NCBI GenBank assembly: GCA_027021705.1 | Contig: JALUTT010000024.1 | Coordinates: 1-25,810, forward strand | Direction of reading: 5' to 3' | Length of the DNA: 25,810 nt | Source of the DNA: Anaerolineae bacterium | Lineage (GTDB): Bacteria; Chloroflexota; Anaerolineae; S140-20 | Part shown: positions 2,062 to 21,460 of the stretch, in pieces | Layout: every line of letters starts with the position of its first letter | Numbering within the stretch: position 1 is the first letter of the stretch | Program-made: the position numbers and the translations under genes | The notes under the pieces: generated by a model | Seen by the model: only the letters and a program-made list of their open reading frames with translations | Database searches by the model: none | What the model was told of the DNA's origin: nothing

Positions 2062-2067
2062 AATCCA

Positions 2068-3714
2068 CTATCCTCCCCAGGGGGGCGGCGGATAAGGGTA
2101 GGGTTCGGGTGTATCCGTGGGCTCCGGTGCAGGCCCCCCACCGCCGCCCCCCCCACCGCCGGGAAAGGGGTTGAACCAGAACATCCCCTCGGTCGAGGTC
2201 GCCAGGGGCCTCCCGCCCTGCACCACTGACACATTCCACCGCCATTCTCCGAACTTGTCTCCCGGCAGGCTGGCCGTCCATTCGGTGGTGGTGAGAAGAG
2301 GGCTCTGCACGCTGTAGCCGCTCTCCCGATGCCAGGCCAGCACTTGGTAGCTCTGTCCCGTGCCCAGCTTCCCTTCCCAGCGGAAGGTGATAGGATTCGA
2401 GTAGGTCTGTCCCTGCTCCGGGAACGTCGGGACCGGCGGGGCGGCCGATGATCCGACGGGAGCGGGTGTGCCTCCCGAAGCCGAGGACGGCGCCTTCGTC
2501 GTTGCCGTCGTGGCCTCCGTTGAGGCCGGCGTGCTGGTTGGCCGGCGCGTCGCCGTCGGCTGCGTCGTCGTCGGTGTCGGCGTCGCTGCCCTCCTGGTCA
2601 TCGTGACTCTGATCACCTCCACCGTCGGAGAGGATCCCGCGCCGGCCGGGACCTCAGGTGAGGCCGTCGCCACCGACGACGGCGAAGTAGGAGACGTTCC
2701 CGCCCGCCCCTTCCCCACCAGGATCCCCACCACCACCAAGGCCAGCACGATCAATCCCCCCACCGCCCACGCCCACGCCGGAACCGACAGGAATGCCGGC
2801 CAGGAGGCGATGGGACGCCCCAAGGGGCCATCCGGGGCCAGGGGGCGAGACCTCGGTCGGAGCCCCGCCGCTCCGATCGCCGTTCCGCCCGCAACCCCCA
2901 GCGCCTGGGCCATTGCCTCGGCGCTGTCGAACCGCTCCGACATCGGCAGCGCCAGCGCCTTCAACACCGCCGCTTCCGTCCGCCGGCCGATCCCCGGAAT
3001 CACCGCCCTAGGCGGGACGAAGCTCTTGGGATCCGCCATCCGCTGCGTCGCCGTCGGCGGGGCCTGTCCCGTCAGGGCGTGGTAGAGGGTCGCCCCCAGG
3101 CTGTAGAGATCACTGCGGGGATCGGTGTGCCCCACCCCCAAGTCGTACTGCTCCGGCGGCGCGTACTCCGGCGTGCCCATCCCCCGCATCACCGTCCCCG
3201 TGTAAGGGTCTCGGGGATCCCACAGCTTCACCAACCCGAAGTCCACCAGCACCGCCCGTCCGTCCCGCTGTAGGATCACGTTCTGGGGCTTCACGTCCCG
3301 GTGCACCACACCCGCTCGGTGACAGTAGGCCAGGGCGTCCAGCAACTGCCCCGCCCAGACCAAGACCTCTGCCTCCGGCAGCGGTCCCTCCCGGGCGATC
3401 CGCTCCGCCAGGCTCTCTCCCTCCACCAGGTCCATCACCAAGTAAGCGTTTCCTCCTTCCTCGAAGGAGTCGGTAACGCGGACCAAGTGGGGATGGTTCA
3501 ACCGGGCCAGGACGATGGCCTCCCGGCGGAACTGAAGGCGCAGCTCTTCCAAAGTGTGCTCCTCCAACCCCGGCTGGGGCCGCATCTCTTTGAGGGCCAC
3601 GGGGACCTCCAGCCGGGCGTCCCAGGCCCTGTAGACGGCTCCCATCCCCCCTTCTTCCAATAGGTCCTTCACGCGATAGCGGTGCTGCAACACCTGTCCG
3701 CTCTGGAGTGCCAT
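2068..3714 (-). CDS. Membrane-anchored Hanks-type Ser/Thr protein kinase with Thr/Pro-rich linker and small extracellular beta-rich domain
   Basis: Start reassigned to MALQSGQ (GAGGAG upstream; the track extension overlaps the upstream gene). Motifs EGGMGAVY, VALKE, HRDVKPQN, DFG, GTPEYAPPEQ. TM WAWAVGGLIVLALVVVGILVG; tail of Gly9 then PEPYPYPPPPWGG. Confidence 0.92.
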   Translation of the reverse strand: MALQSGQVLQHRYRVKDLLEEGGMGAVYRAWDARLEVPVALKEMRPQPGLEEHTLEELRLQFRREAIVLARLNHPHLVRVTDSFEEGGNAYLVMDLVEGESLAERIAREGPLPEAEVLVWAGQLLDALAYCHRAGVVHRDVKPQNVILQRDGRAVLVDFGLVKLWDPRDPYTGTVMRGMGTPEYAPPEQYDLGVGHTDPRSDLYSLGATLYHALTGQAPPTATQRMADPKSFVPPRAVIPGIGRRTEAAVLKALALPMSERFDSAEAMAQALGVAGGTAIGAAGLRPRSRPLAPDGPLGRPIASWPAFLSVPAWAWAVGGLIVLALVVVGILVGKGRAGTSPTSPSSVATASPEVPAGAGSSPTVEVIRVTMTRRAATPTPTTTQPTATRRPTSTPASTEATTATTKAPSSASGGTPAPVGSSAAPPVPTFPEQGQTYSNPITFRWEGKLGTGQSYQVLAWHRESGYSVQSPLLTTTEWTASLPGDKFGEWRWNVSVVQGGRPLATSTEGMFWFNPFPGGGGGGGGGPAPEPTDTPEPYPYPPPPWGG

Positions 3715-3791
3715 CGGTCTCTCCTCGTCCTCTGCGCCGTTAGTCCGCCCTTCACTACGCATAGACCTCGGGGACCCCCCTCGAGGCGACA

Positions 3792-5087
3792 CTACGTCGG
3801 ACGGATGACGATGAAGTTGTTCTTGGGAACTCCCTTGCCAAAATCGGCCCCCCAAGAGGCGCTGAAGGTCTCCCAAGAGCAGGTGTAGGAGCGCCCTTCC
3901 CAAGGGTCGTTGATCCGCACCTGACCGTCGGGCGAGATACCGGTGACCACGACGGCGTGGGTGTACCCCGTCGTCTTCAGCCCCAGCTTCACAATGGCGA
4001 TGACCGGCCCTTCGGCTACTGCCTTCCTCAATGCCTCCAAGTTGGCATTGGTGTGCACCTCTGTCTTCTGGTAGCCCAAGCTCTTCACCTCGTCGAAGAC
4101 CTCGTCCACCCTCATCCCTGCGGTGGGATTGAACACTCCCTGCCCCACGTTGCGGTCCAGCAACTCCTGGGCCGACATCGTCTTGTTGGCCGGGTCCTTG
4201 GCGTGCCAGTAATCCAGGACCATCTGGGTGACTGTCGGCACGCAGCCGTATGCTGTAGGCTTCCCTTTGTATTGGAGGCCCTGCTGGCTTCTCAGCGGAA
4301 CGTCGAACCACCACCGATCCTGGTCGGTCTTAGACGGGGGGGCTGTTGCGCCCGACTCTGGCTTCGCCGTCGCCTCCGGCTTTGCCTCTTGGGCGGGGGC
4401 AGGAGCAGGCTGGGCGGGCGGCTTTCGATCCGCCGGCTCCGTCTCCCTCTCGGTTCCGCCCTCCTTCCCAGGGAAGCGCTGCCTCAACAGCTCGGCCAGC
4501 CGCCCCCGGGCCGGCTGAGGGACAGGCGTCGGCGGGGCCAACTCGAGGTCGGTCTTCCACCCCTTCCCTCGCAGCCAGTTCCAAACCCGCTCCTTCAAGG
4601 CGCGTAGGTCCGGCGGGATCCCAGGCCAGGGCAACAGGCTGCCCACGCCGATGAGCGACGCACCCCCGGCCACCGGCAGCGAGATCGCCCGAATCCGGGG
4701 CGGTGATCCGATGACACTGCCCAGCCCCCACGCAGCATCGACCTGATCCCCGGGGATCCTCCACCAGGAGGGCAGATCCCGCAGTCCGGTGTAGAAGGAA
4801 TCCCCGATCCGGCTCACCTGCCCGACCCCCTGTTGGTCCGCCTCCTCGAAGGCCTGGGCTTTGGTCACCAGGTAGCGGGCCAGGGTCCCGGCCTGCTCGG
4901 CCAGTGCCTGGGCCTGGCTGCGAGCCTGAGCCACCAGCCCTTCCACGTTGGCCTCCTGGCGCACCTCCCAGTCTAACCCTCCCAGGATGGTTCCCAGGCG
5001 ACCTTCTACCGCCTGTAGCTCTCCCGCGACTTGCTGCCATCGGGTTCCCAGCATCCGGAGCTGTGCCGGATCTACCTGAATGCGCAT
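3792..5087 (-). CDS. WXG100-like N-terminus fused to C39-like (papain-fold) cysteine peptidase; probable T7SS effector
   Basis: Start MRIQVDPAQL (GAGGAGG upstream). Helical N-terminus with LDWEV and AFEEAD, then a Pro/Ala linker. C-terminal VPLRSQ..YGCVPT..YTHAVVVTG..INDPW gives the Q/C/H/D catalytic set. Immediately downstream of essC. Confidence 0.85.
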   Translation of the reverse strand: MRIQVDPAQLRMLGTRWQQVAGELQAVEGRLGTILGGLDWEVRQEANVEGLVAQARSQAQALAEQAGTLARYLVTKAQAFEEADQQGVGQVSRIGDSFYTGLRDLPSWWRIPGDQVDAAWGLGSVIGSPPRIRAISLPVAGGASLIGVGSLLPWPGIPPDLRALKERVWNWLRGKGWKTDLELAPPTPVPQPARGRLAELLRQRFPGKEGGTERETEPADRKPPAQPAPAPAQEAKPEATAKPESGATAPPSKTDQDRWWFDVPLRSQQGLQYKGKPTAYGCVPTVTQMVLDYWHAKDPANKTMSAQELLDRNVGQGVFNPTAGMRVDEVFDEVKSLGYQKTEVHTNANLEALRKAVAEGPVIAIVKLGLKTTGYTHAVVVTGISPDGQVRINDPWEGRSYTCSWETFSASWGADFGKGVPKNNFIVIRPT

Positions 5088-5119
5088 TCGATCCCTCCTC
5101 ACCACAGCCCAACCCCGGC

Positions 5120-8100
5120 TCAGGCGACTATGCCCACCGCCTTGCGAAGGGCGCGGGCCATCGCGCCGGCCGAGTCGTAGCGTTCGTCGGGCTCCTTAGC
5201 CATGGCTTTCAGGATTACCGCCTCCACCTCCTCGGGAATGGCCGGGTTGATCTGCCGGGGCCGAGGGGGAGGCTCGTGGATGTGCTTGACGGCGATCCCC
5301 ACCGGCGTGTCGGCTTCGTAGGGCAGCCGGCCGGTGGCCATCTCGTAGAGGATCACCCCCAGCGAGTAGATGTCGGTGCGGTGGTCCACCGGCTTCTTCC
5401 CCAATCCCTGCTCCGGCGATGCATAGGCCAGGGTGCCCAGGAAGGCATCAGACCGTGTCAGCTTCTCTTGGTCAGCCTCTATCACCAGCTTGGCCAACCC
5501 GAAGTCGGTCAGCAGCACCCAATCCCCCTCGTCCAGCAGCACGTTGGAGGGCTTCACGTCCCGGTGGATCACGCCTCGCCTGTGGGCATGGTCCAGGGCT
5601 GCTGCGATCTGACCGACGAAGCGGACTGCCTGGGCGAGGTCCATAGGCCGCCCCATCCGCTCCCGCAGCGTCTCCCCCCTCACGTACTTCATCACGATGT
5701 AGCTGAGGTCCCGCTCCTGACCGAAGTCTATGATGGGCAGGATGTTGGGATGGCTCAGCCGGGCGATGGCCCGGGCTTCCCGTTCGAACCGTTTGGTGAA
5801 GTTGGGCAAGAGAGAGTACTCGGGCAGGAGCACCTTGATGGCCAGGTCCCGGTCCAGGACGGGATCGTAGGCCCGGAAGACGATGGCCATCCCCCCCCGA
5901 CCGATCTCCTCATCAATCCGATACCGCCCCAACCGTTCCCCGATGAGGCCGCGGAGCAGGTCCCGGTAGCTGCTGGGGGGATGGCGGGTTGGGAAGGGGC
6001 GCTTCTTCTCGCCGGACAACTCCTGCTTCGGAGGGGCGACCTGGGTTTTAGGGAAGGGAGAGGGAGGCGTCCTTTCCCGTTCCCACGGGCGGGTCACCCG
6101 CTCCTGGGTTTCCCGGCCGGGTGGGGAGACCTCCTGCCGACGTCCTTCCTCGTCGGGTCGGGCAGCGGTTTTCACCTCACCCTTACCGCGCCGGATGATG
6201 AGGTCTCCCCATGCCTTCAGGGTCATGTCTCCAACGTGGCCGGTGGCGGCCTTGATCCGCCGGTAGCGCCTCCGCTGCGCATAGTAGCCCTGTCCCGGCG
6301 GCAGGAGCTGCCCGGCTTCCCCCATCGGCAAGCGCAGGTTGAAGAGTTGCAGGTCGTTGTGTTCGCTGCTGCCCAGCAGGAAGCCCGTGGGCATCGCCTT
6401 GAGCGCCTTCACCCAGTCTTCGTAGCTGGAGGAGAGGGCGGAGGCGACACCGGCCAGCAGTAGGTGGAAGCCCAGCCCCCGCCCCTGACGGATCAGTTTC
6501 TTCAGCCGCTCTTTGGTACCGCCCTGGACGTCGGCATTGAAGGTCTCGAAATCGCTCACGGCCAACACCAGCGCCGGATAGCCGGCTAACAGGCCCCGCT
6601 TCTCCTCCCCGGACAGCAGCCCGCCGGCCCGCCGACGGGCTTCCTCCAGCGCCTGCCGCCGCTCCTCCAGCGACCGCTCGATCTCGGCCAGGGCCTCGCC
6701 CAACCGATCGTCGTCGGTGATGTAGGCCTGCACGTGGGGCAGCCCTTGCAAGGGCAACAGGTCCATCCCTTGGAAATCGGCCAGGTAGAGGCGCAACCGC
6801 TCCGGTGGGAAGCGCTCCGCCAGGGCCAGGAGCCAGGTCTGCAGGAAGGTCGTCTTGCCGCTCTGGATAGGGCCGGCGATGAGGAAGTGAGGGCCGTCGG
6901 CCAAATCCACCTCGATCGGCTCCAAGTCGTCCACATCCAGCCCTACCGGCACGGCCAAGGCCGTCGCCTCGGCCGGGGAGAGCCATCCGCTGCCGGGGGG
7001 CAGGAGCTCCGCCAGCGCCACCTCCTTGGGCAGCACGGGGATGGGGGTGGCCACCGGCCCTTTCCAAGCTTGGGCCATCCGCTCGATGAGCCCCTTGAGG
7101 GCTTCGGTACGCCGGGCCTCCGTATCCCCGGCCACCGGGAGCGCCGTCTGGAACTCCAGCGGCGGCTTGCCCTTCACCAACCCTCGCCCCGGCACGGCTG
7201 CCGGCACCAGTCCGCCCGTCCGTCCCACCGCCATACCGTAGTCCCCCGGATCGGCCAGTTGCAGGGCCACGGCCAGGGTGATGTTGTTGCTGATCTTGGT
7301 CTTGACCAGGGAGGGGCTGTTGGCCGTGAGGACCAGGTGTACCCCCAAGCTGCCTCCCTCACGGGTGATCTGGGCCAACATCTCCAGCTCCTCCTCCGCT
7401 CCGGGGGTCGCAAAGGCCGTGTAGTTGTCCAGGACGACCACGAGGGCCGGCATCGGGTCGCCGGTGGTCTCCCGGTACGCCGTCAGGGTGCCCACGCCCG
7501 CCCGGGCGAACTGCTCCTTGCGGCGGTCCATCTCCCGCAGGAGGAAGCGGAAGAGGCGCTGTAGCTTCTCCTCCTCATCCATCAGCACCACGCCCCCCAC
7601 GTGGGGGAGGGGAGCGAAGAGGGTGAGCAGTCGTCCGCCGAAGTCGAGCAGGTAGAGGTGCACCTCTTGGGGCGAATGGGTCCGGGCCAGCGCGGTGATC
7701 AGCGTCTGGAGGAAGGTCGTCTTGCCCGTGCCCGGTGCCCCGTAGACGGCCAGGTGGCCCTCCTCCCCCAGGGGGAGCCGCAGCGGTCTCTGCTGTTGGT
7801 TGGCCGGATCGTCCACCAGCCCCACGACCGGCTCCAACCAGGCGGTAGCCGGCTGCCAGGTCTGCCCATCCCATCCCTCGGACGGGCGCACCTCGGCCAG
7901 CACCTCCTCCAGGGTGATCCGCTCCGGCAGTGGAGGGAGCCACGGGCCCGGCAGGGCGGTGATCCCCGCCCGCTTGGCCACCTCTCGGATGTAGGCGACG
8001 AGGGCTTGCAACTGGGTTGTCCTTTCCTGGAACGCCCGCGGCCGGGGGGAGCGGCCCAGGGGACGCCGCTCCCCTTCCAAGGTCACCTCGACGATCTCGT

Positions 8101-10237
8101 AAGGATCTCGGACGACGAAGCTTCCCGGTGCGTAGGGCGCTCCTCCCCAGGCTGCCTGAAAGAGTTCGAAGACCTCGTTGTTGCCGACCTGGAAGTACCC
8201 CCGGCCGGGGTGATGGGGGAGGCCGGCCGCGTCGGGCCGTCGGAGCACATCCTGGCTGTCCTCGGGCCGCTCCACCCGCAGGCAGAAGCGGAAGCGGGTG
8301 TTGGTCCAGATCTGCTCGTTGACCACCCCGGCCGGCTTCTGAGTCGTCAGGAGGAGGTGCACCCCCAGGCTGCGCCCGATCCGGGTAGCGCTGATCAGCT
8401 CCTTCATAAAATCGGGTTGCTCCTGGACCAGCTCGGCGAACTCGTCGGCGATGAGGATCAGGTGGGGGAGGGGCTCCGGCGCTTCCCGTCGCCGGTAACG
8501 CTGTTGGTAAGCGTCAATGTTGGTCACCCCCGCTTGGTTGAAGAGCCGCTGACGTCGCTTGAGCTCCGCCTTGAGCGCCGAGAGGGCCCGGATGGCCAGC
8601 CCCCCCTGGAGGTTGGTGATGGTGCCCACCAGGTGGGGCAGCCCTTGGAAGGCGTTGGCCATTCCGCCCCCCTTGTAGTCAATGAGGACGAAGGCCACCT
8701 CGTGGGGGTGGAAGTGGACGGCCAGGGAGGCGACCAGCGCTTGGAGCAGTTCGCTCTTGCCCGACCCCGTTGTCCCGGCCCCCAGCCCGTGGGGACCGTG
8801 GCCTCGCTCGTGGAAGTCCAGGTAGAGGAGTTCGCCGCCCGCCTTCCGGCCGATGGGGACCGCCAGGGAGCGAAAGGGCTCGCTTTGCCGCCAGCGGGTG
8901 AGCAGGTCCAACTCCTCCACCCGTTCCACCCCCAGGAGGTCGAGCAAGGAGACGGTGCCGGGGACCTCGGCCGAGGCGGTGAGGTGTTGGAGGCGGATGG
9001 GGGCCATCGTGCGGGCGAAGCGGTCCGCTTCCTCCGGCGAGACCTGATCCGGCTCGTAAGGGTGAGGAGGGGCGGTCGGGGTCGCCTGCACCTGACCGTA
9101 TCCCCCGGCTCCAACTCGGACGATGGCCCGGCACCCCTTGGGCAACGCCTCCACCGCATCGGCCAGGAAGATGGGGAAGGCCCCCACCCGTGGTCCTTCC
9201 CGCAGGAGCAAGGGGAGGATGGGCTCCCCTTCCACGAGGCGGGGGTCTGTCAGGAAGAGGACGAAGCAGGGGAGCGGCGGGGCGTCGCGGTGCTCCGCAT
9301 CATCCTGGGGCCGGAGCAGGCGCCGATGGAGCTGGTCGTACAAGGTCATCAGCAGATCATGGGCCGTTCCCTTCTCCCGGGCCAGGAGGCGTCGCTCCCG
9401 CCCTTCCGTCCAAACGTGGGGGAGCCAGCGGATCCAGTCCCACTCCTCGGCCTCGGCTTCCGGGTAGATGGCGACGACCTTGACCTCGTTGGGGGCGTGG
9501 TGGGTGGCGACCTGGAGGGCCAACACGCGGGCCAGGTTCAGCACCGCCCCGCGAGGGCCGGCCAACCCGGCCACCCCGGCCTGGCGCAGGGGCAGGGTGA
9601 TGGGCACCGAGGGGACTTGGGCGAAGTCGGTTGCCAGGTCCCAGGCCGCATCGAAGAGGGGGTCCGGCTCCATCCCACCTTCGGTCGCCTCCTGTCGGGG
9701 AGGCTTGACCGCGACGGAGAAAGGCCGCTGGCCTATGCCCAAGCGCAGGGTGAGGAAGTCCTCGTCACGGGGCGCTCGGGCCCAGAGCCGGCGGGGGTCT
9801 CGCTGCTCCACCAGGGCCAGGCACCTTTGGAGGTCCGGGTCGTTCTCGCAGAGGGCGGCCCGCTGACGTTCTCGCGCCTCCTCCAGCCTCTGGCGGAGGT
9901 TTTGGAGCCGGGCCTGGTAACGCCGTTCCCGCTCCTGGAGCTTGTGGCGGTACTCGTTCCGCTGTGAGCGGTAGCTGAGGAAGGTCACCAGGTAGGAAGC
10001 GAGCATAACGGGCAGCGAGAAGCCCATCGAGAGGAGCAGGTTGCTGCTGCCCGAGGAGAGCCCAACGCCGACCATCACCGCCAGCCCCACCAAGGTCGCC
10101 CCGGCGGGCAGGAGCACCGAGGACAGGGAGGTGGACGGGGGAGTGGGGATCGTCGGCGGGGCCGGGACCTCCACCTCGCCGCCGGGGAGGTCGGGATAGA
10201 TGCGCGGACCGCGCTGGAACGTGGGTGGTGCGGGCAT
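5120..10237 (-). CDS. essC: Type VII secretion ATPase EssC/EccC-like (2 TM, 3 FtsK/SpoIIIE ATPase domains) fused to a C-terminal Ser/Thr kinase
   Basis: Two N-terminal TMs. Walker A motifs GTTGSGKS, GAPGTGKT, GPIQSGKT; HGPHG, IDYKGG, LILIADEFAEL, GRSLGVHL as in EssC D1. Last ~275 aa: IGRGGMAIV, AIKVL, HRDVKPSN, DFG, YASPEQ. Adjacent to a WXG100 gene. Confidence 0.95.
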   Translation of the reverse strand: MPAPPTFQRGPRIYPDLPGGEVEVPAPPTIPTPPSTSLSSVLLPAGATLVGLAVMVGVGLSSGSSNLLLSMGFSLPVMLASYLVTFLSYRSQRNEYRHKLQERERRYQARLQNLRQRLEEARERQRAALCENDPDLQRCLALVEQRDPRRLWARAPRDEDFLTLRLGIGQRPFSVAVKPPRQEATEGGMEPDPLFDAAWDLATDFAQVPSVPITLPLRQAGVAGLAGPRGAVLNLARVLALQVATHHAPNEVKVVAIYPEAEAEEWDWIRWLPHVWTEGRERRLLAREKGTAHDLLMTLYDQLHRRLLRPQDDAEHRDAPPLPCFVLFLTDPRLVEGEPILPLLLREGPRVGAFPIFLADAVEALPKGCRAIVRVGAGGYGQVQATPTAPPHPYEPDQVSPEEADRFARTMAPIRLQHLTASAEVPGTVSLLDLLGVERVEELDLLTRWRQSEPFRSLAVPIGRKAGGELLYLDFHERGHGPHGLGAGTTGSGKSELLQALVASLAVHFHPHEVAFVLIDYKGGGMANAFQGLPHLVGTITNLQGGLAIRALSALKAELKRRQRLFNQAGVTNIDAYQQRYRRREAPEPLPHLILIADEFAELVQEQPDFMKELISATRIGRSLGVHLLLTTQKPAGVVNEQIWTNTRFRFCLRVERPEDSQDVLRRPDAAGLPHHPGRGYFQVGNNEVFELFQAAWGGAPYAPGSFVVRDPYEIVEVTLEGERRPLGRSPRPRAFQERTTQLQALVAYIREVAKRAGITALPGPWLPPLPERITLEEVLAEVRPSEGWDGQTWQPATAWLEPVVGLVDDPANQQQRPLRLPLGEEGHLAVYGAPGTGKTTFLQTLITALARTHSPQEVHLYLLDFGGRLLTLFAPLPHVGGVVLMDEEEKLQRLFRFLLREMDRRKEQFARAGVGTLTAYRETTGDPMPALVVVLDNYTAFATPGAEEELEMLAQITREGGSLGVHLVLTANSPSLVKTKISNNITLAVALQLADPGDYGMAVGRTGGLVPAAVPGRGLVKGKPPLEFQTALPVAGDTEARRTEALKGLIERMAQAWKGPVATPIPVLPKEVALAELLPPGSGWLSPAEATALAVPVGLDVDDLEPIEVDLADGPHFLIAGPIQSGKTTFLQTWLLALAERFPPERLRLYLADFQGMDLLPLQGLPHVQAYITDDDRLGEALAEIERSLEERRQALEEARRRAGGLLSGEEKRGLLAGYPALVLAVSDFETFNADVQGGTKERLKKLIRQGRGLGFHLLLAGVASALSSSYEDWVKALKAMPTGFLLGSSEHNDLQLFNLRLPMGEAGQLLPPGQGYYAQRRRYRRIKAATGHVGDMTLKAWGDLIIRRGKGEVKTAARPDEEGRRQEVSPPGRETQERVTRPWERERTPPSPFPKTQVAPPKQELSGEKKRPFPTRHPPSSYRDLLRGLIGERLGRYRIDEEIGRGGMAIVFRAYDPVLDRDLAIKVLLPEYSLLPNFTKRFEREARAIARLSHPNILPIIDFGQERDLSYIVMKYVRGETLRERMGRPMDLAQAVRFVGQIAAALDHAHRRGVIHRDVKPSNVLLDEGDWVLLTDFGLAKLVIEADQEKLTRSDAFLGTLAYASPEQGLGKKPVDHRTDIYSLGVILYEMATGRLPYEADTPVGIAVKHIHEPPPRPRQINPAIPEEVEAVILKAMAKEPDERYDSAGAMARALRKAVGIVA

Positions 10238-10321: not shown

Positions 10322-10591
10322 TTACCCCTGATCGGCAGCCTCGAAGCGGGCAGCGATGGCGTCCAGTTGCTGGGCAATGCCGTTGAGCAGCTCCACGAAC
10401 TGGTTCATCGTCGTCCGCCACTGCTGGAACTCCTGGTAGAAGCGCTGCTTGGTCAAGCCCTCCCACTCCGGCTCCAGGCTGCTGATGGTGCTCTGGAGTC
10501 GGCTGACCATCTCCTGGCTCTGACCACTGGCTTGCCGGAACTGTTGGCCTACCTGCCGTACCTGCTCGGGGGTAATCTTGATGCGTGTCAT
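10322..10591 (-). CDS. WXG100 family (EsxA/YukE-like) type VII secretion protein
   Basis: 89 aa from ATG at 10591 (AGGAGG upstream): MTRIKITPEQV...central EWEG...RFEAADQG. Helix-turn-helix hairpin pattern. Confidence 0.96.
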   Translation of the reverse strand: MTRIKITPEQVRQVGQQFRQASGQSQEMVSRLQSTISSLEPEWEGLTKQRFYQEFQQWRTTMNQFVELLNGIAQQLDAIAARFEAADQG

Positions 10592-10849
10592 AACCAAACC
10601 TCCTGTTCAGACTTCAGATTTTCAGCCGATGGGCGATCTCCTTCCGGCGGGCCTGGGCCCTGCCGAGCCGACCGGTGCCGGACCGGTCGGAAGTCAACCC
10701 ACAAACCCTTAATCCCGAACGATGACGATGATCCCTTTTGAGCGTCGCATCACCTCCTTCACTTGTCGGTTTTCACCCCTTTGCTTCCCCATCCTCCTGG
10801 TCCCACGCCCGACGGCCGCCGGGCCACCGGGACCTTTCAATCTGCTCTT

Positions 10850-11542: not shown

Positions 11543-11616
11543 CAGAAGTCCTCCTTAACAGGTTTTGGGACTTGCTCCCCTCTTCTCTCCCGGCCGGGTA
11601 GCTATGGAGGGCTGCC

Positions 11617-12951: not shown

Positions 12952-13075
12952 ATTCCCTTCTCCTTCAAGCGCCGGGGCCGACCTTCTCTCGGCGGCCGCC
13001 GCTTGGCCATCAATCGCCCACCAACCCGTTCGGTCCGAGCCGTCCCAGGGTGGTTTACCGTCCTTGGCCCTCTCA

Positions 13076-13097
13076 GCCCGACGATGGATCGTCGGGC
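13076..13097. other. Perfect intergenic inverted repeat
   Basis: gcccgacgat-gg-atcgtcgggc, just downstream of the kinase-WD40 stop codon; no U-tract. Confidence 0.4.
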
Positions 13098-13124
13098 GAC
13101 TCTCCCTACTCAACGTCCCGATGA

Positions 13125-14845
13125 CTACTCCCCAACTCCCCACAGCTGCACGGTCCCGTCGGTCGAGGCCGAGGCCAGCAGCGCCCCGTCGGGGGAGAAG
13201 GCGACACTCCATACCACATCGGTCTGCCCCTCCAGGGTCCGCAGGGGCTCCCCGTCGGCCACCCGCCACAGCCGCACCGTGGTGTCGGTCGAGGCCGAGG
13301 CCAGCAGCGCCCCGTCGGGGGAGAAGGCGACGCCCCACACCTTGTCGGTGTGTCCTTCCAACGTGCGCAGGAGCTCCCCGTCGGCCACCCGCCACAGCCG
13401 CACGGTGCCGTCGTCCGAGGCCGAGGCCAGCAGCGCCCCGTCGGGGGAGAAGGTGACATCCCACACCCCGTCGGTGTGGCCCTCCAGCGTCCGCAGGGGC
13501 GCTCCGTCAGCCACCCGCCACAGCCGCACGGTGCCGTCGTCCGAGGCCGAGGCCAGCAGCGCCCCGTTGGGGGAGAAGGCGACGCTTCTCACCCAATCGG
13601 TGTGCCCCTCCAACGTCCGCAGGGGCTCGCCATCGGCCACCCGCCACAGCCGCACGGTGCCATCCCAGGAGGCCGAGGCCAGCAACTCCCCGTCGGGGGA
13701 GAAGGCGACGCTCAACACCGGACCGGTGTGCCCCTCCAGCGCCCGCAGGGGCTCCCCGTCGGCCACCCGCCACAGCCGCACGGTGCTGTCGCCTGAGGCC
13801 GAGGCCAGCAGCGCCCCGTCGGGGGAGAAGGCGACGCTTCTCACCGAACCGGTGTGCCCCTCCAGCGTCCGCAGGGGCTCGCCATCGGCCACCCGCCACA
13901 GCCCCACGGTGCCGTCCAAAGAGGCCGAGGCCAGCAGCGCCCCGTCGGGGGAGAAGGCCACCCCCACTAGGGCTCCGTGCCTTCGCAGAGTGCGCCGAAG
14001 GGAGCCATCGGACACCCGCCACAGCCGTATCCCGTCAAGGCCGCTTGAGGCCAGGGTGGCCCCGCCAGGGGAGAAGGCGACGCTCCAGACCAGACCGAGG
14101 TGCCCTTCCAGGGTCCGCAGGGGCGCCCCGTCGTCCACCCGCCACAGCCGCACGGTGCCGTCGACCGAGGCCGAGGCCAGCAGGTCTCCGTCGGGGGAGA
14201 AGGCGACGCCCCACACCTTGTCGGTGTGTCCTTCCAACGTGCGCAGGGGCTTCCCGTCGTCCATCCGCCACAGCCGCACGGTGCCGTCGTCCGAGGCCGA
14301 GGCCAGCAGCGCCCCGTCGGGGGAGAAGGCGACGCTCCATACCACATCGGTCTGCCCCTCCAGGGTCCGCAGGGGCTCCCCGTCGGCCACCCGCCACAGC
14401 CGCACGGTGCCGTCGGCCGAGGCCGAGGCCAGCAGGTCCCCGTCGGGGGAGAAGGCGACGCTCCATACCACATCGGTGTGCCCGTCCAGGGTCCGCAGGA
14501 GCTTCCCGTCGGCCACCCGCCACAGCCGCACGGTGCCGTCATCCGAGGCCGAGGCCAGCAGGTCCCCGTCGGGGGAGAAGGCGACGCTCCATACCACACC
14601 GGTGTGCCCTTCCAACGTGCGCAGGGGCTCCCCGTCGGCCACCCGCCACAGCCGCACGGTGCCGTCGGCCGAGGCTAAGGCCAGCAGGTCCCCGTCGGGG
14701 GAGAAGGCGATCCCCCACGTCCCGACCTCCATCTTGGCCGACCAGATGGGGGTCAAGGTCTCCCCGTCGTACAGGGAGAACCCCATACCGGTTGCAACGG
14801 CCACCAGCCTCCCGTCGGGGGAGTAGGCGATCCAGTAAGCCATCC
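13125..14845 (-). repeat. Coding tandem array of ~126-bp WD40 units (14 copies, probably two 7-bladed propellers)
   Basis: 14 VAFSPxG-type units counted. The first unit and the unit 7/8 junction are the most divergent. Confidence 0.9.
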
Positions 14846-17009
14846 CGTAGCCCAACCGGCCCACCGGCCCCACCCCTCCGGCGTTGTCCGCCGAGATGGG
14901 GACGGTCGGCAGTGTGGGGGTCGTCTGCCCTCCCCGGCCGCCTTCAGGACGGGAGGGCGGGGTGGGCGTCGGCGTCGGTGCCTCCGTGGCCGTTGGGGCA
15001 ACGGCCACTGCCGACATCGGCGTCGGCGCCTCCTCGGCCGTTGGGGCAGGGACCGGCGTGTCCTTAACCGTTCCGACTTGAACGACCACCGGCGGCTCGA
15101 CGATCACCTGGGGGACGGGGTGGGCGAGCAACCGCCGCGTGGCGACGCCTATCCCGATGCTCATCACCAGGGTCAGCAGCCCCCAGATCCACCGCCACCT
15201 CTTTGGCCTCCCTTTGGCCGCTTCCTGCCGGCTCGGGACGGAGGCCGGTGTCCGAGGTACCTTCTCCCTGACCTCCGCCAGGAGTTCGGCGGCCCATCGC
15301 CCCTGCCGGACGTAGCCGGGCCGAGCCCGGACCACCTCCTGCAGCGCCCGTTCCGCTTCCTGCCACTTCCCCGCGCGGTAGGCGGCCACCCCTTCGTCGA
15401 ACCGTGCTGCCAGCGCCGCCTCCTCTTCACACCGTCGCCGGGCGTTCTCCCAGTGAGTTCGTCGGACCAGGTCCTCGGCCTCTTCGACCAACTGCCGGTA
15501 GAGGGCTGCCGCCTCCTCCCATTGCCCTGCCTGCTCCAGCGCTTCGGCCTCTTCCGCCCTCTCCTCCAAGCGCCGCTCGTCGAAAAGGCCTGCCGGCTCC
15601 GCCTCCTCCAAGGCCGCCTCGGGTACCTGCCACAGCCGGATTGTCCCGTCGGACGAGGCCGAGGCCGGCGGTTCCCCCTCGGGGGAGAAGGCAACATCGC
15701 CCTCCATCGTGGTCTCCAAGGAGGCCGGAGCCTGTAACGCTTCACCGGGGGAGGGGGCAGCGCTTCTCACCCCCTCGGTCTCCTCCCACACCACCGTTTC
15801 GTCCCGCTCCCTCTGGCCGACGTCCGCCGGGGGTTTCGGCTCCTCAATCCTCCCCTCCAGATCCTGCACCGTGGCGGCCAACTCTTCCGCCAGCCCACTC
15901 CCGGCCGGGACCATCGTCTGGGCCTGCCGGTACGCCTCCAACGCGCTCTTCCACGCCTCCTGGGCCTCGAAGCGTCGTGCCAGGGCCATCAGCGCCCGTA
16001 CCGCCTCCAGCCCCCCGGCCTCCACCTCCTCTTCCTCTCGGCCCTCCACCGCTGCCGGTCTCTCCTCCGCCTCGACCTCCCCGACCGGTCGGGGGACCTC
16101 CTCCGGCAGGACCACCAGCCACTCCCCGAAGGTGGGGCACTCGGCCAGCCCTTCGCTCTGCCAGGCCCGCTCGAAGAGCTGCCGGACCCCTCCTCCCCAT
16201 CGTTCCTCCAACACCTCCACCAGCAGTTGATACCGCCTCGTCTCCCGTTGCATCTCCTCCGGCGCAAAGAAGGTCTCTTCCCACCCGGCCTTCCGGACCC
16301 GCTCGTCGCACCACCCCAGCATCTCCCCCAGCAACACGGCACCGGCGAACCGATCCGCCTGGGCCCCCCACACTCCCTCCGGCGCTCTCCGGTGGACGTA
16401 GCCGGACGATCCCCCGGGCAGCAGTTCCGGCCGCTCCACGTTCGGCCCGTACATCTGCTCCACATCCACCAGAACGACTGCCTCCCGGTCCCCGCCACCA
16501 TCGGCGACCAGGCCGGGCAGCATCACGTTAGAGCCGGACAGGTCGCAGTGGGCCAGCCTCCGCTGCTCCAGCGTTGCCAGCACCTCCGCCAGCCCTCGCG
16601 CCAGCGTCAGGCTCTCCCCCGGCTCCAGGGCCCGTTTCGTCACCATCACCTCCAACCAGGTAGGCCCTTCCACCCACGGCATCAGCACCGCGTAGGTCAG
16701 GTCGGGATACGCCCGCAACAGGGCCTGATGCTCCTGGGGCGTCAGCACCGTGCGCCGGCAGACCTGCAGGCCGGGCAGCGCCGCGTAGGGCGCGATGCGC
16801 TCTGCCTGGATGACCAGGGCCGGCGAGCGGTAGCGGGGTTTGAAAACCTTGAGGGCCTGCGCCTCGCCCCTCTCGGGGACCACTTGATAGACGATGGCCT
16901 GGCGGCCTTCTTGACCGTAGGGTATCCCCGGCGCGGCCGGGTGCTCAGCAACCCGGTAGGTCGTCTCACCGATCACCAACGCTTCCCCGACTTCAGGTTG
17001 GAAGGCCAT
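13125..17009 (-). CDS. Atypical Ser/Thr kinase (TerY-P-triad type) + TPR-like helices + TM + 14 WD40 repeats
   Basis: N-terminal GQEGRQAIVY, ALKVFK, LMPWVEG, HCDLSGSN, LVDVEQ. TPR-like segments (WKSALEAYRQA, QWEEAAALY, KWQEAERAL). TM WIWGLLTLVMSIGIGVA, Pro/Thr linker, then 14 counted WD40 repeats. GGAGG RBS. Confidence 0.92.
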   Translation of the reverse strand: MAFQPEVGEALVIGETTYRVAEHPAAPGIPYGQEGRQAIVYQVVPERGEAQALKVFKPRYRSPALVIQAERIAPYAALPGLQVCRRTVLTPQEHQALLRAYPDLTYAVLMPWVEGPTWLEVMVTKRALEPGESLTLARGLAEVLATLEQRRLAHCDLSGSNVMLPGLVADGGGDREAVVLVDVEQMYGPNVERPELLPGGSSGYVHRRAPEGVWGAQADRFAGAVLLGEMLGWCDERVRKAGWEETFFAPEEMQRETRRYQLLVEVLEERWGGGVRQLFERAWQSEGLAECPTFGEWLVVLPEEVPRPVGEVEAEERPAAVEGREEEEVEAGGLEAVRALMALARRFEAQEAWKSALEAYRQAQTMVPAGSGLAEELAATVQDLEGRIEEPKPPADVGQRERDETVVWEETEGVRSAAPSPGEALQAPASLETTMEGDVAFSPEGEPPASASSDGTIRLWQVPEAALEEAEPAGLFDERRLEERAEEAEALEQAGQWEEAAALYRQLVEEAEDLVRRTHWENARRRCEEEAALAARFDEGVAAYRAGKWQEAERALQEVVRARPGYVRQGRWAAELLAEVREKVPRTPASVPSRQEAAKGRPKRWRWIWGLLTLVMSIGIGVATRRLLAHPVPQVIVEPPVVVQVGTVKDTPVPAPTAEEAPTPMSAVAVAPTATEAPTPTPTPPSRPEGGRGGQTTPTLPTVPISADNAGGVGPVGRLGYGMAYWIAYSPDGRLVAVATGMGFSLYDGETLTPIWSAKMEVGTWGIAFSPDGDLLALASADGTVRLWRVADGEPLRTLEGHTGVVWSVAFSPDGDLLASASDDGTVRLWRVADGKLLRTLDGHTDVVWSVAFSPDGDLLASASADGTVRLWRVADGEPLRTLEGQTDVVWSVAFSPDGALLASASDDGTVRLWRMDDGKPLRTLEGHTDKVWGVAFSPDGDLLASASVDGTVRLWRVDDGAPLRTLEGHLGLVWSVAFSPGGATLASSGLDGIRLWRVSDGSLRRTLRRHGALVGVAFSPDGALLASASLDGTVGLWRVADGEPLRTLEGHTGSVRSVAFSPDGALLASASGDSTVRLWRVADGEPLRALEGHTGPVLSVAFSPDGELLASASWDGTVRLWRVADGEPLRTLEGHTDWVRSVAFSPNGALLASASDDGTVRLWRVADGAPLRTLEGHTDGVWDVTFSPDGALLASASDDGTVRLWRVADGELLRTLEGHTDKVWGVAFSPDGALLASASTDTTVRLWRVADGEPLRTLEGQTDVVWSVAFSPDGALLASASTDGTVQLWGVGE

Positions 17010-17033: not shown

Positions 17034-17528
17034 CTAATCCAGTTGTCTCCAGACGTACCCTTCGTCCTCCTCCTGAGCCGGGCCGTCCTCGTCGAACCCC
17101 GGAGGTCCTCCCTCCGGCATCCCCCCCACGTCAACAGGTCCCGGGGGCTCCTCTCCCATCGGAGCCACGCCGAGTTCTCCGGGCTCCAGAAGGGGACTCC
17201 ACCCCACCACAGGCCCAGATTCTTCCCCTCCCTCAGGCCTCTCAAAGGACCTCGAAGGAAGGGGCGGCGGGACTTCGGAGGGCCGGAACACCAGCCGAGC
17301 CCCGTCCCAGGCTCCCGCGTCGGCCAGGCTCTCGTCGGGGGCCAGCGCCCGGCCCGGCGGTTCGGCCAGAATCTCGTAGGAGATGGACCAGCCGGTGGTG
17401 CCCTGATCCCAGCCCAGGGCATCGGCGATCATCGCCGCCAGCCGTTGGGCCTCCACCTCCGCCGGCACCTCCAGGTCCCGCCCTCGCGCCTCACCCTCCC
17501 GCTCGACCGTCACGATCACCCGGTGCAT
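17034..17528 (-). CDS. EsaB/YukD-like ubiquitin-fold T7SS protein with acidic Pro/Gly-rich tail
   Basis: Start reassigned to MHRVIVTV (GAGGAAAGG upstream). VIVTV..RDLEVPAE..LAAMIADALGW..LAPDESLADAGAWDGARL matches the YukD pattern. Ends DEGYVWRQLD. Confidence 0.85.
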   Translation of the reverse strand: MHRVIVTVEREGEARGRDLEVPAEVEAQRLAAMIADALGWDQGTTGWSISYEILAEPPGRALAPDESLADAGAWDGARLVFRPSEVPPPLPSRSFERPEGGEESGPVVGWSPLLEPGELGVAPMGEEPPGPVDVGGMPEGGPPGFDEDGPAQEEDEGYVWRQLD

Positions 17529-17545
17529 CGTCGCCCCGCCTTTCC

Positions 17546-18361
17546 TCACGCCGCCGGAAGTGGCTCCGGCAGCACCCGGTCCATCACCCGCCGCAGCGCC
17601 TCTCGGGCCTCTCCGGCGGTGCAGGGGATGACCTCCACCCAATCCTCTCCCCGGCGGGTGAAGGCCCTCAGTCGCCACAGGCCGTTCTCCCCCTCCAATA
17701 GGCCCATTCCGGCTACCTCCCAGGTGACCTCCCGGCGGGCCAGGGCCACCAGCGCACCGTTGCGGGTCGGGCGGGCCAGCGTTTCCGTCAGTGCGACCGC
17801 CGTCTCGCTCCCCAGGCCGGCCCGCTCTAGGGCGGCTTGAGCTGCTTCAGGGCCTGAGTCCTCGATCAACGTTCGGGCCTGGGTCAACTCCGTTCCCCGG
17901 AGCCTGCCGCTTCCCCCCGGTGCCGCCGGCTGGTCGTCCAAGCCCAGCATCGCCGTCACCCGCTCGAAGACGGAGGCAGGGTCCTCCAGGGCGGTCAGCC
18001 GGTAGCCCTCGGGCTCCGGCGCTTGCTCGACGGCCAGGTGGCGGGTTAGGTGGAAATAGCGCACCGTTGGCGCCCCGCCGGCGGGCGTCACCGTCAGGAG
18101 GAAGGAAGCCTCCGGGAAGGCGCAGGTGCCCACCAGGGTAGCTACGGCCACGTCCATCACGATGCTCCCGTCGGGCTGCACCTCGATAAAACGACGGGCG
18201 GCCAAGGCTTCTCGAGCCTGCTGCCACGCGGCTTCGATCTCTTCGGCCAACCAGCCCCAAAAGGGGTCCTCGAGGCCCAACAGCATATCGGCCCCCAGCA
18301 AGCCGGCCAGGAAGACCATCTCCTGGGCCGAACACGTTATGGTAGGAACATCGTTGTCCAT
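17546..18361 (-). CDS. Hypothetical protein, probable T7SS chaperone/accessory factor (EsaE/DUF5081- or EspG-like)
   Basis: 271 aa soluble protein. N-terminus SAQEMVFLAGLLG..LLGLEDPF..AREALAARRFI resembles, by recollection, EsaE/EspG-type N-termini. Lies between a WXG gene and yukD. The ORF is secure; the family is tentative. Confidence 0.6.
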   Translation of the reverse strand: MDNDVPTITCSAQEMVFLAGLLGADMLLGLEDPFWGWLAEEIEAAWQQAREALAARRFIEVQPDGSIVMDVAVATLVGTCAFPEASFLLTVTPAGGAPTVRYFHLTRHLAVEQAPEPEGYRLTALEDPASVFERVTAMLGLDDQPAAPGGSGRLRGTELTQARTLIEDSGPEAAQAALERAGLGSETAVALTETLARPTRNGALVALARREVTWEVAGMGLLEGENGLWRLRAFTRRGEDWVEVIPCTAGEAREALRRVMDRVLPEPLPAA

Positions 18362-18470: not shown

Positions 18471-19031
18471 TCAGGAACCCCGGGGCCGGCGTCCGGGAAG
18501 CTCGGCGGCCCGCTCCACTCGCCCCTGCCACCGGGGGGCGATCGGGCGCAGCGGGCGGATCCCCACCCCAGAGCTGAGAGGCCGGACGGCAAGAGGCACG
18601 ACGATGGCCGTCACCCGCCGGTCCTGCTGCCCGTCCAGACCCAGCCATCGCTCGACCAGGGCGTGAGGGAAACGCGCCTGCGGTCGCAAAGCCTCGAAGC
18701 GGAGGGCCCACGCTCGTTGTACCTGGACGAAGGCGTCGGCGACCTGTCCGAGGGCGACCATACCAGCCCGGTCGGCCTCCTCGAAGCGGGCTGCTCGCTC
18801 AAGGAGGAAACGGGCCAGAGCATCCGCCCGGTCGGCCAGCGTCCGCAGGCGGGCCCGAGCCTGCCACCACCGGGCCTCCACGTCGGCCCGGTAGGCTCCC
18901 TCCCACTCCTCCGCGCTCAGCCGGTTCCATGCTCCGAGGAGACGGCTTTCCAAGGCGTAGAGCCCGTTGGCCGCCTCGGAGAGACTCCGGGCCGCCTCCC
19001 GCAGGTGATCGGGGTCTACCCGAATGCGCAT
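18471..19031 (-). CDS. WXG100-domain protein with ~90-aa C-terminal extension
   Basis: Start MRIRVDPDHL (GGAGAGG upstream); EEWEG motif; RFEEAD; 186 aa. Confidence 0.85.
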   Translation of the reverse strand: MRIRVDPDHLREAARSLSEAANGLYALESRLLGAWNRLSAEEWEGAYRADVEARWWQARARLRTLADRADALARFLLERAARFEEADRAGMVALGQVADAFVQVQRAWALRFEALRPQARFPHALVERWLGLDGQQDRRVTAIVVPLAVRPLSSGVGIRPLRPIAPRWQGRVERAAELPGRRPRGS

Positions 19032-19113
19032 CTCGGCCTCTCCAGTCCGTCTCAATCCTCCGTGGCCGTTTCTCCAACTCGATCAACCGATCCTAGGTAC
19101 CTCCGACGGCCTT

Positions 19114-20673
19114 TCAGGGTGTCGGTGCCGACGTCAGGACCACCGTCGGCGTCGGCGTCCAGGTCCCCGTCACGGTGGGGGTGATCGTCGGTGTCGGCGT
19201 CCAGGTCCCCGTCACGGTGGGGGTGATCGTCGGCGTCAGGGCCTGGGTTTCCGTCACGATGGGGGTGGCCGTCGGCACCAGGCCGGGCGGCCCGGTGGGC
19301 ATCACCGCAGGGGTGACGGTCGCAAAAGGCGTGGCCGTCGGTGTCACCATCGGGGCCACCGTGCTGGCCTTGGGCGGGAATCCGCCGGCAGGACCCGGGG
19401 GAGGCGAGCCCAAGGGGGCAGTCCTGGGGACCGTCTCCGTCGGCGGCCCCGGTGTGCCCCTCAGGCCCCTTCCCGGCTCCCCCGGCGGAGGCGGAACCTG
19501 ACCTGGCCTTGAGGGGGTGTTCCGATCCCAGACCGGTCCCCTTGTGGTCGGCGTCGCACCAAAGAAGAGGTTGTGAAGGGGGCCTCGTTGGGGAACGATG
19601 AGCTCGGCTGCGATGATGCCCATCAGAACGACTGCGGCCAGGGCGACGGCTACTCCCTTCAGCCACACCGACTCCTTCGCCGGAGGGGGGATGTCTTTCT
19701 TCAACCGGGGGCTCACCTGCCGAGTCGTCTCCGCCCCGGAAGGACGACGTTGCGGCACGGCGCCAGGCACCGATCTGGTCCGGCTGGGGACCGATGATGG
19801 CTCGATCCAAACCTCTAGGAAGGCGATGTCATCGCTGGTGGCCGCGCTGCCGGCCTCCTCGATCATCCTCTGCAAGGTCTGACGGGATAAGTCCTTCTCC
19901 CGTCCATCCAGAGCTGCCAGCCCGTCGGTGTAGGCCATCAGCCAGGCCAAACGTTGCTCCCCATCCCTCAGAGGGGCGACGAAACAGTGGGGCCTTCCTC
20001 CCACAGGGCCTCGGTGGGAGGACCAGCGCCGGGCGATGTCAAAGTTACCTCCCAGGGGCACCGGTTGTTTCCGGTCGTTCCACAATCGCAGACGCGAATC
20101 CCCCATCCAGGCCAGCACGATCCGTCCTTCCGGCAGGCCCTCCCGGGGCAGGTCTATGCGTCCACAGGCGAAGGTGCTCTCGCTCCCCAGCCTGCGTTTC
20201 TCCTCCAGCACCTCGCGCAACAAGGGCGGGAGGTCGGACGGCAGGGGATGGCGCTCTACCAAGCTCTTGGCCGGCTCCACAATCTCCCACAGGTAATCAT
20301 CCAAGGCGGCGGCGATGGTCTCCCGGTCCATCGTCTCGGGCAGGCGATCTCTCAACCACGCCACCAGGCTGTCCCCTAGGTAGCGGGATGCCAGGTCACC
20401 GTAGAAGGACTGGCCCACCCCGTCACACAAGGCGAAGACGAAGCTTCCTTCCCCTTCGCAAAAGGCCAGGTAATCCTGTCCTCGGTCGCCGGCTGCCCGC
20501 GTCTCGGCCGCACGGGCATAGGCGTACAGGAGGGGAAACTGCCCCCTCTCGAACTTCGCCTGCGTCTCTCGGTCTTGGGGAAGCCGTACTTCCTGACATC
20601 GAGATGGGGCCTCTCCCGTCTTTTTGGGGACCGAAAGCCGACGGGTGACAGGGCGATGCGGCCTCTCGCTCAC
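19114..20673 (-). CDS. PP2C-family protein phosphatase with TM and Pro/Thr-rich extracellular tail
   Basis: Start reassigned to GTG 20673 (AAAGGAGG 5 nt upstream, just after the vWA stop). Motifs GQD, ALCDGVG, GSESTF, WMGDS, YTDGL, SDDIA. TM VAVALAAVVLMGIIAAELIV. Confidence 0.88.
   Translation of the reverse strand: MSERPHRPVTRRLSVPKKTGEAPSRCQEVRLPQDRETQAKFERGQFPLLYAYARAAETRAAGDRGQDYLAFCEGEGSFVFALCDGVGQSFYGDLASRYLGDSLVAWLRDRLPETMDRETIAAALDDYLWEIVEPAKSLVERHPLPSDLPPLLREVLEEKRRLGSESTFACGRIDLPREGLPEGRIVLAWMGDSRLRLWNDRKQPVPLGGNFDIARRWSSHRGPVGGRPHCFVAPLRDGEQRLAWLMAYTDGLAALDGREKDLSRQTLQRMIEEAGSAATSDDIAFLEVWIEPSSVPSRTRSVPGAVPQRRPSGAETTRQVSPRLKKDIPPPAKESVWLKGVAVALAAVVLMGIIAAELIVPQRGPLHNLFFGATPTTRGPVWDRNTPSRPGQVPPPPGEPGRGLRGTPGPPTETVPRTAPLGSPPPGPAGGFPPKASTVAPMVTPTATPFATVTPAVMPTGPPGLVPTATPIVTETQALTPTITPTVTGTWTPTPTITPTVTGTWTPTPTVVLTSAPTP
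19151..19234 (-). repeat. In-frame 42-bp tandem duplication in the PP2C tail
   Basis: gtcggcgtccaggtccccgtcacggtgggggtgatcgtcgg(t/c) twice; encodes TPTITPTVTGTWTP repeats. Confidence 0.85.
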
Positions 20674-20690
20674 CTCAGCCTCCTTTCCGC

Positions 20691-21446: not shown

Positions 21447-21460
21447 AGTTCTTCCCCCTT

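Follow-up and report, generated by a model that had tools for sequence, protein, structure and literature searches.

Why would the motor ATPase of a type VII secretion system (T7SS) carry a protein kinase at one end? The question is raised by a stretch of 25,810 nucleotides (nt) of Anaerolineae DNA (GenBank assembly GCA_027021705.1, contig JALUTT010000024.1), called the window here, which is the entire 25.8-kb contig (C24) within a genome bin of 5.19 Mb and 183 contigs. On its minus strand, 5120..10237 is a single open frame of 1705 codons plus stop that encodes a TscC/EssC-type secretion ATPase joined at its C-terminus to a Hanks-type Ser/Thr kinase. A first-pass annotation made from the sequence had proposed an in-frame EssC-kinase fusion at 5120-6200. 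The fusion is real in that one frame of 1705 codons yields full-length EssC and Pkinase matches, but the span proposed for it holds only the kinase and the linker, which are the C-terminal part of this longer gene.

The ATPase part is a complete EssC/TscC body (6248..10225, minus strand), delimited by the NCBIfam EssC profile TIGR03928, an alignment with YukB and the Walker A motifs. Three stretches of the protein match FtsK_SpoIIIE in Pfam (E 1.5e-87), and TIGR03928 reaches 1266 bits where its cut-off is 778, with residues 5-1330 covering profile positions 4-1294 of 1296. The Walker A motifs lie at residues 488-495, 833-840 and 1122-1129 (8753-8776, 7718-7741 and 6851-6874, minus strand), and Kyte-Doolittle hydropathy predicts two N-terminal transmembrane (TM) helices at residues 41-59 and 67-85 (9983..10117, minus strand; mean hydropathy 2.08 and 1.75). 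Alignment with Bacillus subtilis YukB (PDB 9QKS; E 1.8e-152) pairs residue 5 with YukB residue 224, so the N-terminus of the protein coincides with the end of the FHA region in T7SSb EssC, and five homologues aligned with it (A1) all begin at this same N-terminal position. The T7SSc subtype of these systems has been described by Garrett et al. 2024 (PMC11217815, cited here and below for the sections available to us) as comprising an FHA-less ATPase TscC, the WXG100 protein TscA, a YukD-like TscB, a kinase TscD, TscE with a von Willebrand factor A (vWA) domain, TscF, which is a PPM phosphatase, and TscG, an EspG-like chaperone. As a T7SSc reference we used a Paenibacillus barcinonensis locus (L017), whose layout is exactly this component set, and compared the window proteins with it by BLAST. 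The EssC body is 41% identical to its ATPase over 1365 aligned positions, the whole length. The first-pass annotation was thus right that the window ATPase lacks FHA domains but not that this sets it apart, because their absence is the rule both among the aligned homologues and in the T7SSc of PMC11217815; it is a property of this ATPase class and is not linked to the kinase fusion.

Beyond the third ATPase domain (D3) the frame runs through a linker, residues 1346-1436 (5930..6202, minus strand), defined by alignment A1 and by its composition, which is Pro/Arg/Glu-rich (15 Arg, 14 Pro and 11 Glu in 91 residues). The first-pass annotation had read a charged linker of about 75 residues without a stop; it is indeed open in frame, but closer to 90 residues long. 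In an AlphaFold2 model of residues 1050-1705 (predicted template modelling score 0.47), D3 and the kinase are confidently predicted, the kinase having a predicted local distance difference test (pLDDT) score of mostly 85-97, and residues 1354-1422 have a pLDDT of about 30 and no secondary structure. The tether between D3 and kinase is accordingly modelled as flexible and disordered.

The kinase domain itself occupies residues 1437-1700 (5138..5929, minus strand), as delimited by Pfam, a PknB-like model and motifs. Pkinase (PF00069) matches residues 1439-1689 with an E value of 9.9e-45 and 153 bits against a cut-off of 31.7. Every Hanks catalytic motif is present, namely the Gly loop (1446-1451), Lys1468, the alpha-C Glu, HRD (1558-1560), Asn1565, DFG (1578-1580) and SPE (1607-1609), as the first-pass annotation had also read it. 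The catalytic residues are conserved in an alignment of kinase domains (A3), and the activation loop contains Thr and Ser. The nearest solved chains, StkP (9RUK; E 3.5e-61) and PknB (E 6e-58), are matched over the full length of the kinase domain. From its sequence the fused kinase therefore looks catalytically intact and would presumably be active. It has neither a TM helix of its own nor a PASTA sensor, and the PASTA kinase profile NF033483 (PknB/Stk1) reaches 358 bits against a cut-off of 450, covering positions 7-268 of 563 only. A complex prediction for D3 (A4) with the kinase domain (A3) scored 0.00 and counts neither way. PADLOC matches of the kinase domains to PD-T4-6 and mad6 were set aside as generic kinase homology and not as membership of a defence system.

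A fusion of this kind could in principle be an artefact: the assembly might be chimeric, or two genes might be read through in this strain alone. The stretch was found in four sequencing runs, two of which (X1 and X2) are a possible source of the DNA and two of which (X3 and X4) belong to a different study, and contigs of X1, X3 and X4 were compared with the window over 5000-7200. The X3 and X4 contigs contain no inserted or deleted letters and differ by substitution at 17 sites in total; 12 of these are in kinase codons (10 synonymous, 2 non-synonymous), 2 are in the linker (both non-synonymous) and 3 are in D3 (2 synonymous, 1 non-synonymous). A stop or indel in the linker was what would have refuted the fusion, and on this test it was not refuted. 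The X3 and X4 contigs do, however, stop at 6053 and resume at 6060 (6050 in X4), within the linker, leaving 6 bases that no independent contig bridges; X1, from the possible source, is the sole contig set that spans the whole stretch. This break is one of two points that speak for an artefact; the other is the linker, which exceeds that of the other fused homologues by about 45 residues (A1).

Against it stand the homologues. Our main search used residues 1050-1705 as the query and listed 120 rows, of which 48 are EssC-type as defined by PF01580 and the other 72 are kinases without FtsK domains. Three of the 48 also carry Pkinase: the window protein, P0003 (1634 amino acids, aa) and P0004 (a 982-aa fragment). 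Looking up their clusters added the full-length fused proteins P0363 and P0364 (1634 aa) and P0366 (1645 aa), on other contigs, and an exhaustive search of representative proteins (150 listed; Pfam run on 12 plus P0003) added P0122, a 720-aa fragment with the C-terminal fusion. A metagenome scan returned 22 loci, six of which, not counting the window contig, reach 53% identity or more in D3. The frame can be traced past D3 in four of the six, and it continues into a kinase in L036 and L037 and stops after D3 in L038 and L039. The same D3-linker-kinase frame is thus present in three other lineages (P0003 with P0363 and P0364; P0004/P0366/L037; P0122/L036) that are 65-67% identical, and the end of D3 and the kinase are common to the fused homologues (A1). 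At least six further contigs of different origin (L036, L037, P0003, P0363, P0364, P0366) have this architecture, and in a tree of 50 kinase domains the 4 fused ones group as a single clade (SH-aLRT 96). Since the X3 and X4 contigs are also gap-free on either side of the break and X1 covers the entire stretch, the artefact reading is already largely refuted and we regard it as barely credible; read-through confined to one strain is not supported when close homologues have the same fusion. EssC-type matches occurred in 2 of 60 relatives (species-representative genomes G031 and G044), neither of them fused. A query with P0004 found none in 400 other genomes of the phylum at E <= 1e-120, a weak test in which 2 candidates were scored per genome. 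A contig scan of the genome collection returned, besides Paenibacillus T7SSc loci, a single close locus (L016), which is unfused.

The fused kinase is inherited and has been maintained by selection. Between L036 and L037 the ratio of non-synonymous to synonymous divergence (dN/dS) is 0.13 in the kinase (242 of 272 residues identical), close to the 0.15 of D2-D3 (302 of 421 identical), and 0.31 in the linker; the kinase is under purifying selection, to which the 10 synonymous against 2 non-synonymous strain substitutions in its codons also point. Outside the fused group, the kinases most closely related to it stand alone or are linked to TPR (61-68% identity), and some belong to genomes of the same family. 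The kinase probably came from the lineage's own set of kinases.

Kinases are also tied to these ATPases in other ways. A 1686-aa protein from the search of representative proteins, P0126, has a Hanks kinase at residues 19-273, which a spacer rich in Ser, Ala and Gln separates from a complete EssC. When the first 620 residues of P0126 served as the query we found P0265 (1703 aa, 55% identical) and P0288 (1641 aa, 34% identical). P0126, the sole N-fused protein placed on our tree, does not share the EssC clade of the C-fused proteins, and its kinase has diverged strongly, so that the N-terminal fusion looks like an independent event, at the end where T7SSb EssC has its FHA domains. A further cluster (P0275) holds five proteins of 1080 aa that combine a kinase with one FtsK domain; their automatic Joint Genome Institute names, FtsK/SpoIIIE-like protein/predicted Ser/Thr protein kinase, indicate that such fusions sit unremarked in databases. 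In G031, a genome of the same class as the window, a 1073-aa kinase-FHA gene lies directly upstream of genes for a WXG100 protein, an unfused EssC and a CHAP effector. Kinases are therefore tied to these ATPases in three ways: by adjacency, by N-terminal fusion and by C-terminal fusion. As a separate observation, contig C7 of G044, also of this class, encodes (L057, 3464-12283, minus strand) a 2939-aa EssC-like protein with seven FtsK/SpoIIIE stretches beside a 447-aa protein with a WXG100 N-domain.

The fusion ties protein phosphorylation directly to the type VII secretion machine. On genomic grounds it argues strongly for a kinase that works at the motor and not via transcription, because it has been kept by selection across lineages that have diverged by about 35%, because N-terminal fusions seem to have arisen independently and because a relative has an adjacent kinase-FHA gene. 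We favour a reading in which the kinase is accessory and, at the secretion motor, works as a phospho-regulatory module; we give this a probability of roughly 60%, and for any particular phosphorylation target our confidence is much less. EccC/EssC ATPases multimerise, D3 is their substrate-binding domain, and PknB-type kinases are activated via dimers. In the window protein, which is anchored in the membrane through its TscC/EssC part, the tether joins the kinase to the membrane-distal, cytoplasmic end of the ATPase after D3. Multimerisation of the ATPase would concentrate six kinase copies and could lead to their trans-autophosphorylation; the activated kinase might then phosphorylate nearby parts of the machine or cargo docked at D3, and the PPM phosphatase TscF would reset the phosphorylation state. 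That the kinase is active, that multimerisation switches it on, what it phosphorylates and in which sense it regulates are all steps that we infer. The fusion also offers a compact construct with which to test what a T7SS-associated kinase phosphorylates.

Several observations weigh against a regulatory module at the motor. Most of the close EssC homologues do without it: 45 of the 48 in the main search have no kinase, the unfused ones being about 1300-1390 aa long. An EssC tree of 51 rows joins the C-fused proteins with the unfused P0023 (support 88), and together they are nested in a clade of 100% support with the unfused P0005, P0006 and P0057. A 16-row IQ-TREE analysis places unfused P0023 as sister to fused P0366 with a support of 100, and an approximately unbiased (AU) test rejects a clade of the four fused proteins without P0023 (p 0.0008). 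The P0023 protein ends right after D3. The EssC trees and the single clade of fused kinases, taken together, mean that the kinase was gained once and afterwards lost at least once. L038, the counterpart of P0023 in the metagenomes, has an effector gene 45 nt past the essC stop and no kinase gene, indicating that the kinase was lost there and not split off. The kinase is thus dispensable for the secretion system as such, an accessory and not a core component. A comparison of 4 fused with 20 unfused EssC bodies found no columns with fused-specific residues or Ser/Thr sites, the sole exception being one variable column in the TM region, and so gives no pointer to a phospho-acceptor site or a docking surface. 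FHA domains, of which the genome has 8 matches, are all elsewhere, with no match on the contig. The 7 runs returned by our search included no RNA run that contains the stretch, and its source is uncultured. The fused kinase could also be redundant, as the locus already has the kinase-like TscD and a third kinase.

Synonymous divergence (dS) between L036 and L037 is far lower in the kinase (0.46) than in D2-D3 (1.2), and the kinase tree pairs P0004 with P0122, a pairing that the EssC tree does not have; the low kinase dS and the mismatch between trees hint that related essC genes have exchanged the C-terminal module by recombination. The metagenome-assembled genome (MAG) of P0004 (NCBI RLB23012.1) is labelled Deltaproteobacteria bacterium, against Chloroflexota for the close sister P0023, probably a binning or label error.

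Could the kinase instead act on the cargo? Phosphorylation of substrates was one of the two roles, with gating of the motor, that the first-pass annotation had put forward. Placed near D3, it might phosphorylate WXG100 partners or effectors before or during export and so license or prime them. The gene that follows the fusion (3792..5105, minus strand) encodes a likely T7SS effector with a helical WXG/EspC-like N-domain, a Pro-rich spacer and a C39-like papain-fold peptidase (Peptidase_C39_2, E 3.1e-14), which would be one such substrate. An alignment (A2) of the genes downstream of essC in L036 (2216-3526), L037 (2391-3629) and L038 (879-1871) shows that an N-domain of about 100 aa is conserved and the C-domain is variable; a CHAP domain replaces the peptidase in the effectors of L038 and G031, making this a polymorphic effector. 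The position of the kinase after D3 on a long tether and the effector-type gene that comes directly after the fusion in L036, in L037 and in the window agree with a role in cargo modification. The unfused L038, however, has the same effector N-domain and no kinase, so export of this effector class needs none, and the N-terminal fusions place the kinase at the membrane-proximal end, a poor fit to a role specific to D3. We consider cargo modification unlikely.

The output could also be directed away from the machine, with assembly or activity of the motor turning the kinase on so that it reports secretion or contact status to cellular targets outside the T7SS. The nearest kinases are, as noted, ordinary stand-alone or TPR-linked enzymes of the same lineage (61-68% identity), and the genome has at least 18 Hanks kinase matches besides the eight FHA proteins elsewhere, which would provide for such signalling. 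No target or co-varying partner was identified, however, and the role is one we infer; we find it less probable than a role in cargo modification.

Finally, the kinase could be a structural scaffold, a docking module for which catalysis is irrelevant, as with the pseudokinase EssB of T7SSb: the kinase fold of EssB/YukC binds EssC without catalysis (PMC11217815 and PMC10765036, in their available sections). Pseudokinases normally lose their motifs, whereas all catalytic motifs are kept in all 4 fused lineages and the dN/dS of the kinase is 0.13, leaving the scaffold the most doubtful of these three roles.

How does this arrangement compare with known systems? Like the window ATPase, the TscC of T7SSc is FHA-less with 2 TM helices and FtsK-like domains, and T7SSc shares with the window its WXG100, YukD, kinase-like TscD, vWA and PPM phosphatase components and a candidate TscG partner. 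The C-terminal Hanks kinase, in contrast, is absent from TscC as described in the available sections of PMC11217815, and the TscD of the window has TPR and WD40 regions where that of Bacillota has a TM helix and an outer domain. T7SSb EssC/YukB is a homologous motor to which a kinase fold is likewise physically tied; there, however, the fold (EssB/YukC) is a separate, catalytically dead membrane protein on the N-terminal FHA domains of EssC, whereas in the window it is fused to the C-terminus and has all motifs, and there is no FHA. T7SSb EssC has two N-terminal FHA domains and the partners EssB, EssA and EsaA; the YukC/EssB-type family was absent from Pfam scans of the window open reading frames (ORFs). 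The fused kinase matches the PknB/StkP kinases over its full length but differs from them in its anchoring, which is via the secretion ATPase. The N-terminal kinase-EssC fusions have the same combination of a Hanks kinase with an FtsK-like ATPase in the same broad EssC group, at the opposite end of the protein. The threonine-phosphorylation pathway of the type VI secretion system (T6SS; kinase, phosphatase and FHA protein) follows the same logic, in which a secretion or conflict system has a kinase and a PPM phosphatase of its own; the T6SS parallel is from PMC11217815. TerY-P, a triad of vWA, PP2C and kinase proteins (PMC10542128, available sections), shares this logic. In T6SS and TerY-P the kinase is unfused to a motor, and the window locus is without an FHA reader.

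We found no characterised T7SS ATPase with a kinase fusion described in the literature, in line with the first-pass annotation, with the proviso that the supplements of PMC11217815 (EssC lists) and subscription journals might include some. What is new is the EssC/TscC-kinase fusion; T7SSc with phospho-signalling parts was already known. A bolder, tentative idea, to which we give a low probability, is that live kinases at either end of the motor are the active counterpart of a fossil pair of EssB pseudokinase and EssC FHA domains. The motor would then be a platform for kinase activation, in which substrate-driven multimerisation of TscC switches the kinases on and so couples secretion to Ser/Thr signalling mechanically. 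Were this so, the platform would either hold the motor at a checkpoint or signal that secretion is going on.

The locus is, by its gene content, a T7SSc-type system. T7SSc has been reported in Bacillota only (Paenibacillus as well as B. anthracis and B. brevis) in the available sections of Garrett et al. 2024 (PMC11217815), which raise its phospho-regulation without demonstrating it and note that kinases, PPM phosphatases and FHA domains recur in T7SS clusters. The host of the window appears to be one of the Chloroflexota and not of the Bacillota; its closest named EssC homologues are from Chloroflexota MAGs (P0023, P0030 and L016), and WXG100 sequences have been noted in Chloroflexota by a review (PMC10765036, available sections). 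T7SSc-type systems would thus extend beyond Bacillota, to what appears to be Chloroflexota.

The neighbouring genes, all on the minus strand unless stated, match the T7SSc set as follows. TscA (10322..10597), a WXG100 protein of 91 aa, lies 84 nt upstream of the fused gene; it matches PF06013 (E 2.4e-23) and is 53% identical to the WXG100 of L017. A second WXG100-like protein of 194 aa (18471..19055; PF06013, E 8.4e-7) is the only other WXG100 match in the genome, both being in the window. A YukD-like ubiquitin-fold protein corresponding to TscB (17034..17678, ORF limits uncertain) matches PF08817 (E 1.1e-8) with 36.1 bits, above the cut-off of 27; a BLAST comparison with the L017 protein of 114 aa returned no match. 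The candidate TscG (17546..18361, ORF limits also uncertain) is 24% identical (E 2.6e-18) to a 276-aa L017 protein beside tscC. TscE (20691..21464) is a vWA protein of TerY type, 60% identical to the L017 vWA (E 2.3e-110) and matching PADLOC TerY (E 1.4e-18). TscF (19114..20907, ORF start uncertain) is PPM/PP2C-like with one TM helix (PP2C_2, E 6e-5; 37% identical to L017, E 1.3e-49). The TscF-like ORF is 597 aa long with its TM helix at 419-437, compared with a Paenibacillus protein of 280 aa predicted to be soluble. It shares 216 nt with the vWA gene, which leaves the position of its real start uncertain.

The TscD orthologue (13125..17009) is a cytoplasmic protein of 1294 aa, with an atypical kinase-like N-domain of about 390 aa followed by TPR and WD40 regions, and is 43% identical to Paenibacillus TscD (E 1e-113). 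WD40 matches fall in 13 stretches, the kinase-like motifs are ALKVF, HCD..N and DVE, and there is no TM helix. It weakly matches the TerY-P kinase model STK_OB (PADLOC, E 6.2e-5); given this match and the TerY type of TscE, the TscD/E/F trio resembles the vWA-phosphatase-kinase switch of TerY-P. In L039, which has an unfused EssC of 55% identity, there are four paralogues of the TscD N-domain (574-6416 and 10905-16511), each with a different C-terminal part.

The third kinase (2068..3714) is a receptor-type Hanks kinase of about 548 aa (Pkinase, E 1.9e-43), with an N-terminal kinase domain, one TM helix and a Ser/Thr/Pro-rich outer part that ends in a poly-Gly/Pro tail. Its probable start is Met201 of a long ORF, and it is about 40% identical to the fused kinase. 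The long ORF (2068-4314) was considered as TscD and rejected, having no match in L017, TscD corresponding to the N-domain of the 1294-aa WD40 protein. In L036 the counterpart position is occupied by a CAP-domain protein.

Three membrane proteins have no family match: one of 636 aa with about 10 hydrophobic helices (151-2061), one of 230 aa with 4 helices (10850-11542) and one with 4 TM helices and a C-terminal WD40 region (11617-13464). They could be parts of the membrane channel of this system. Diverging from the T7SS genes on the plus strand, 22287-24916 holds two ORFs overlapping by 73 nt, one with NB-ARC/STAND NTPase and sigma-70 region 4 matches and the other with TPR, which may together be one STAND-type regulator.

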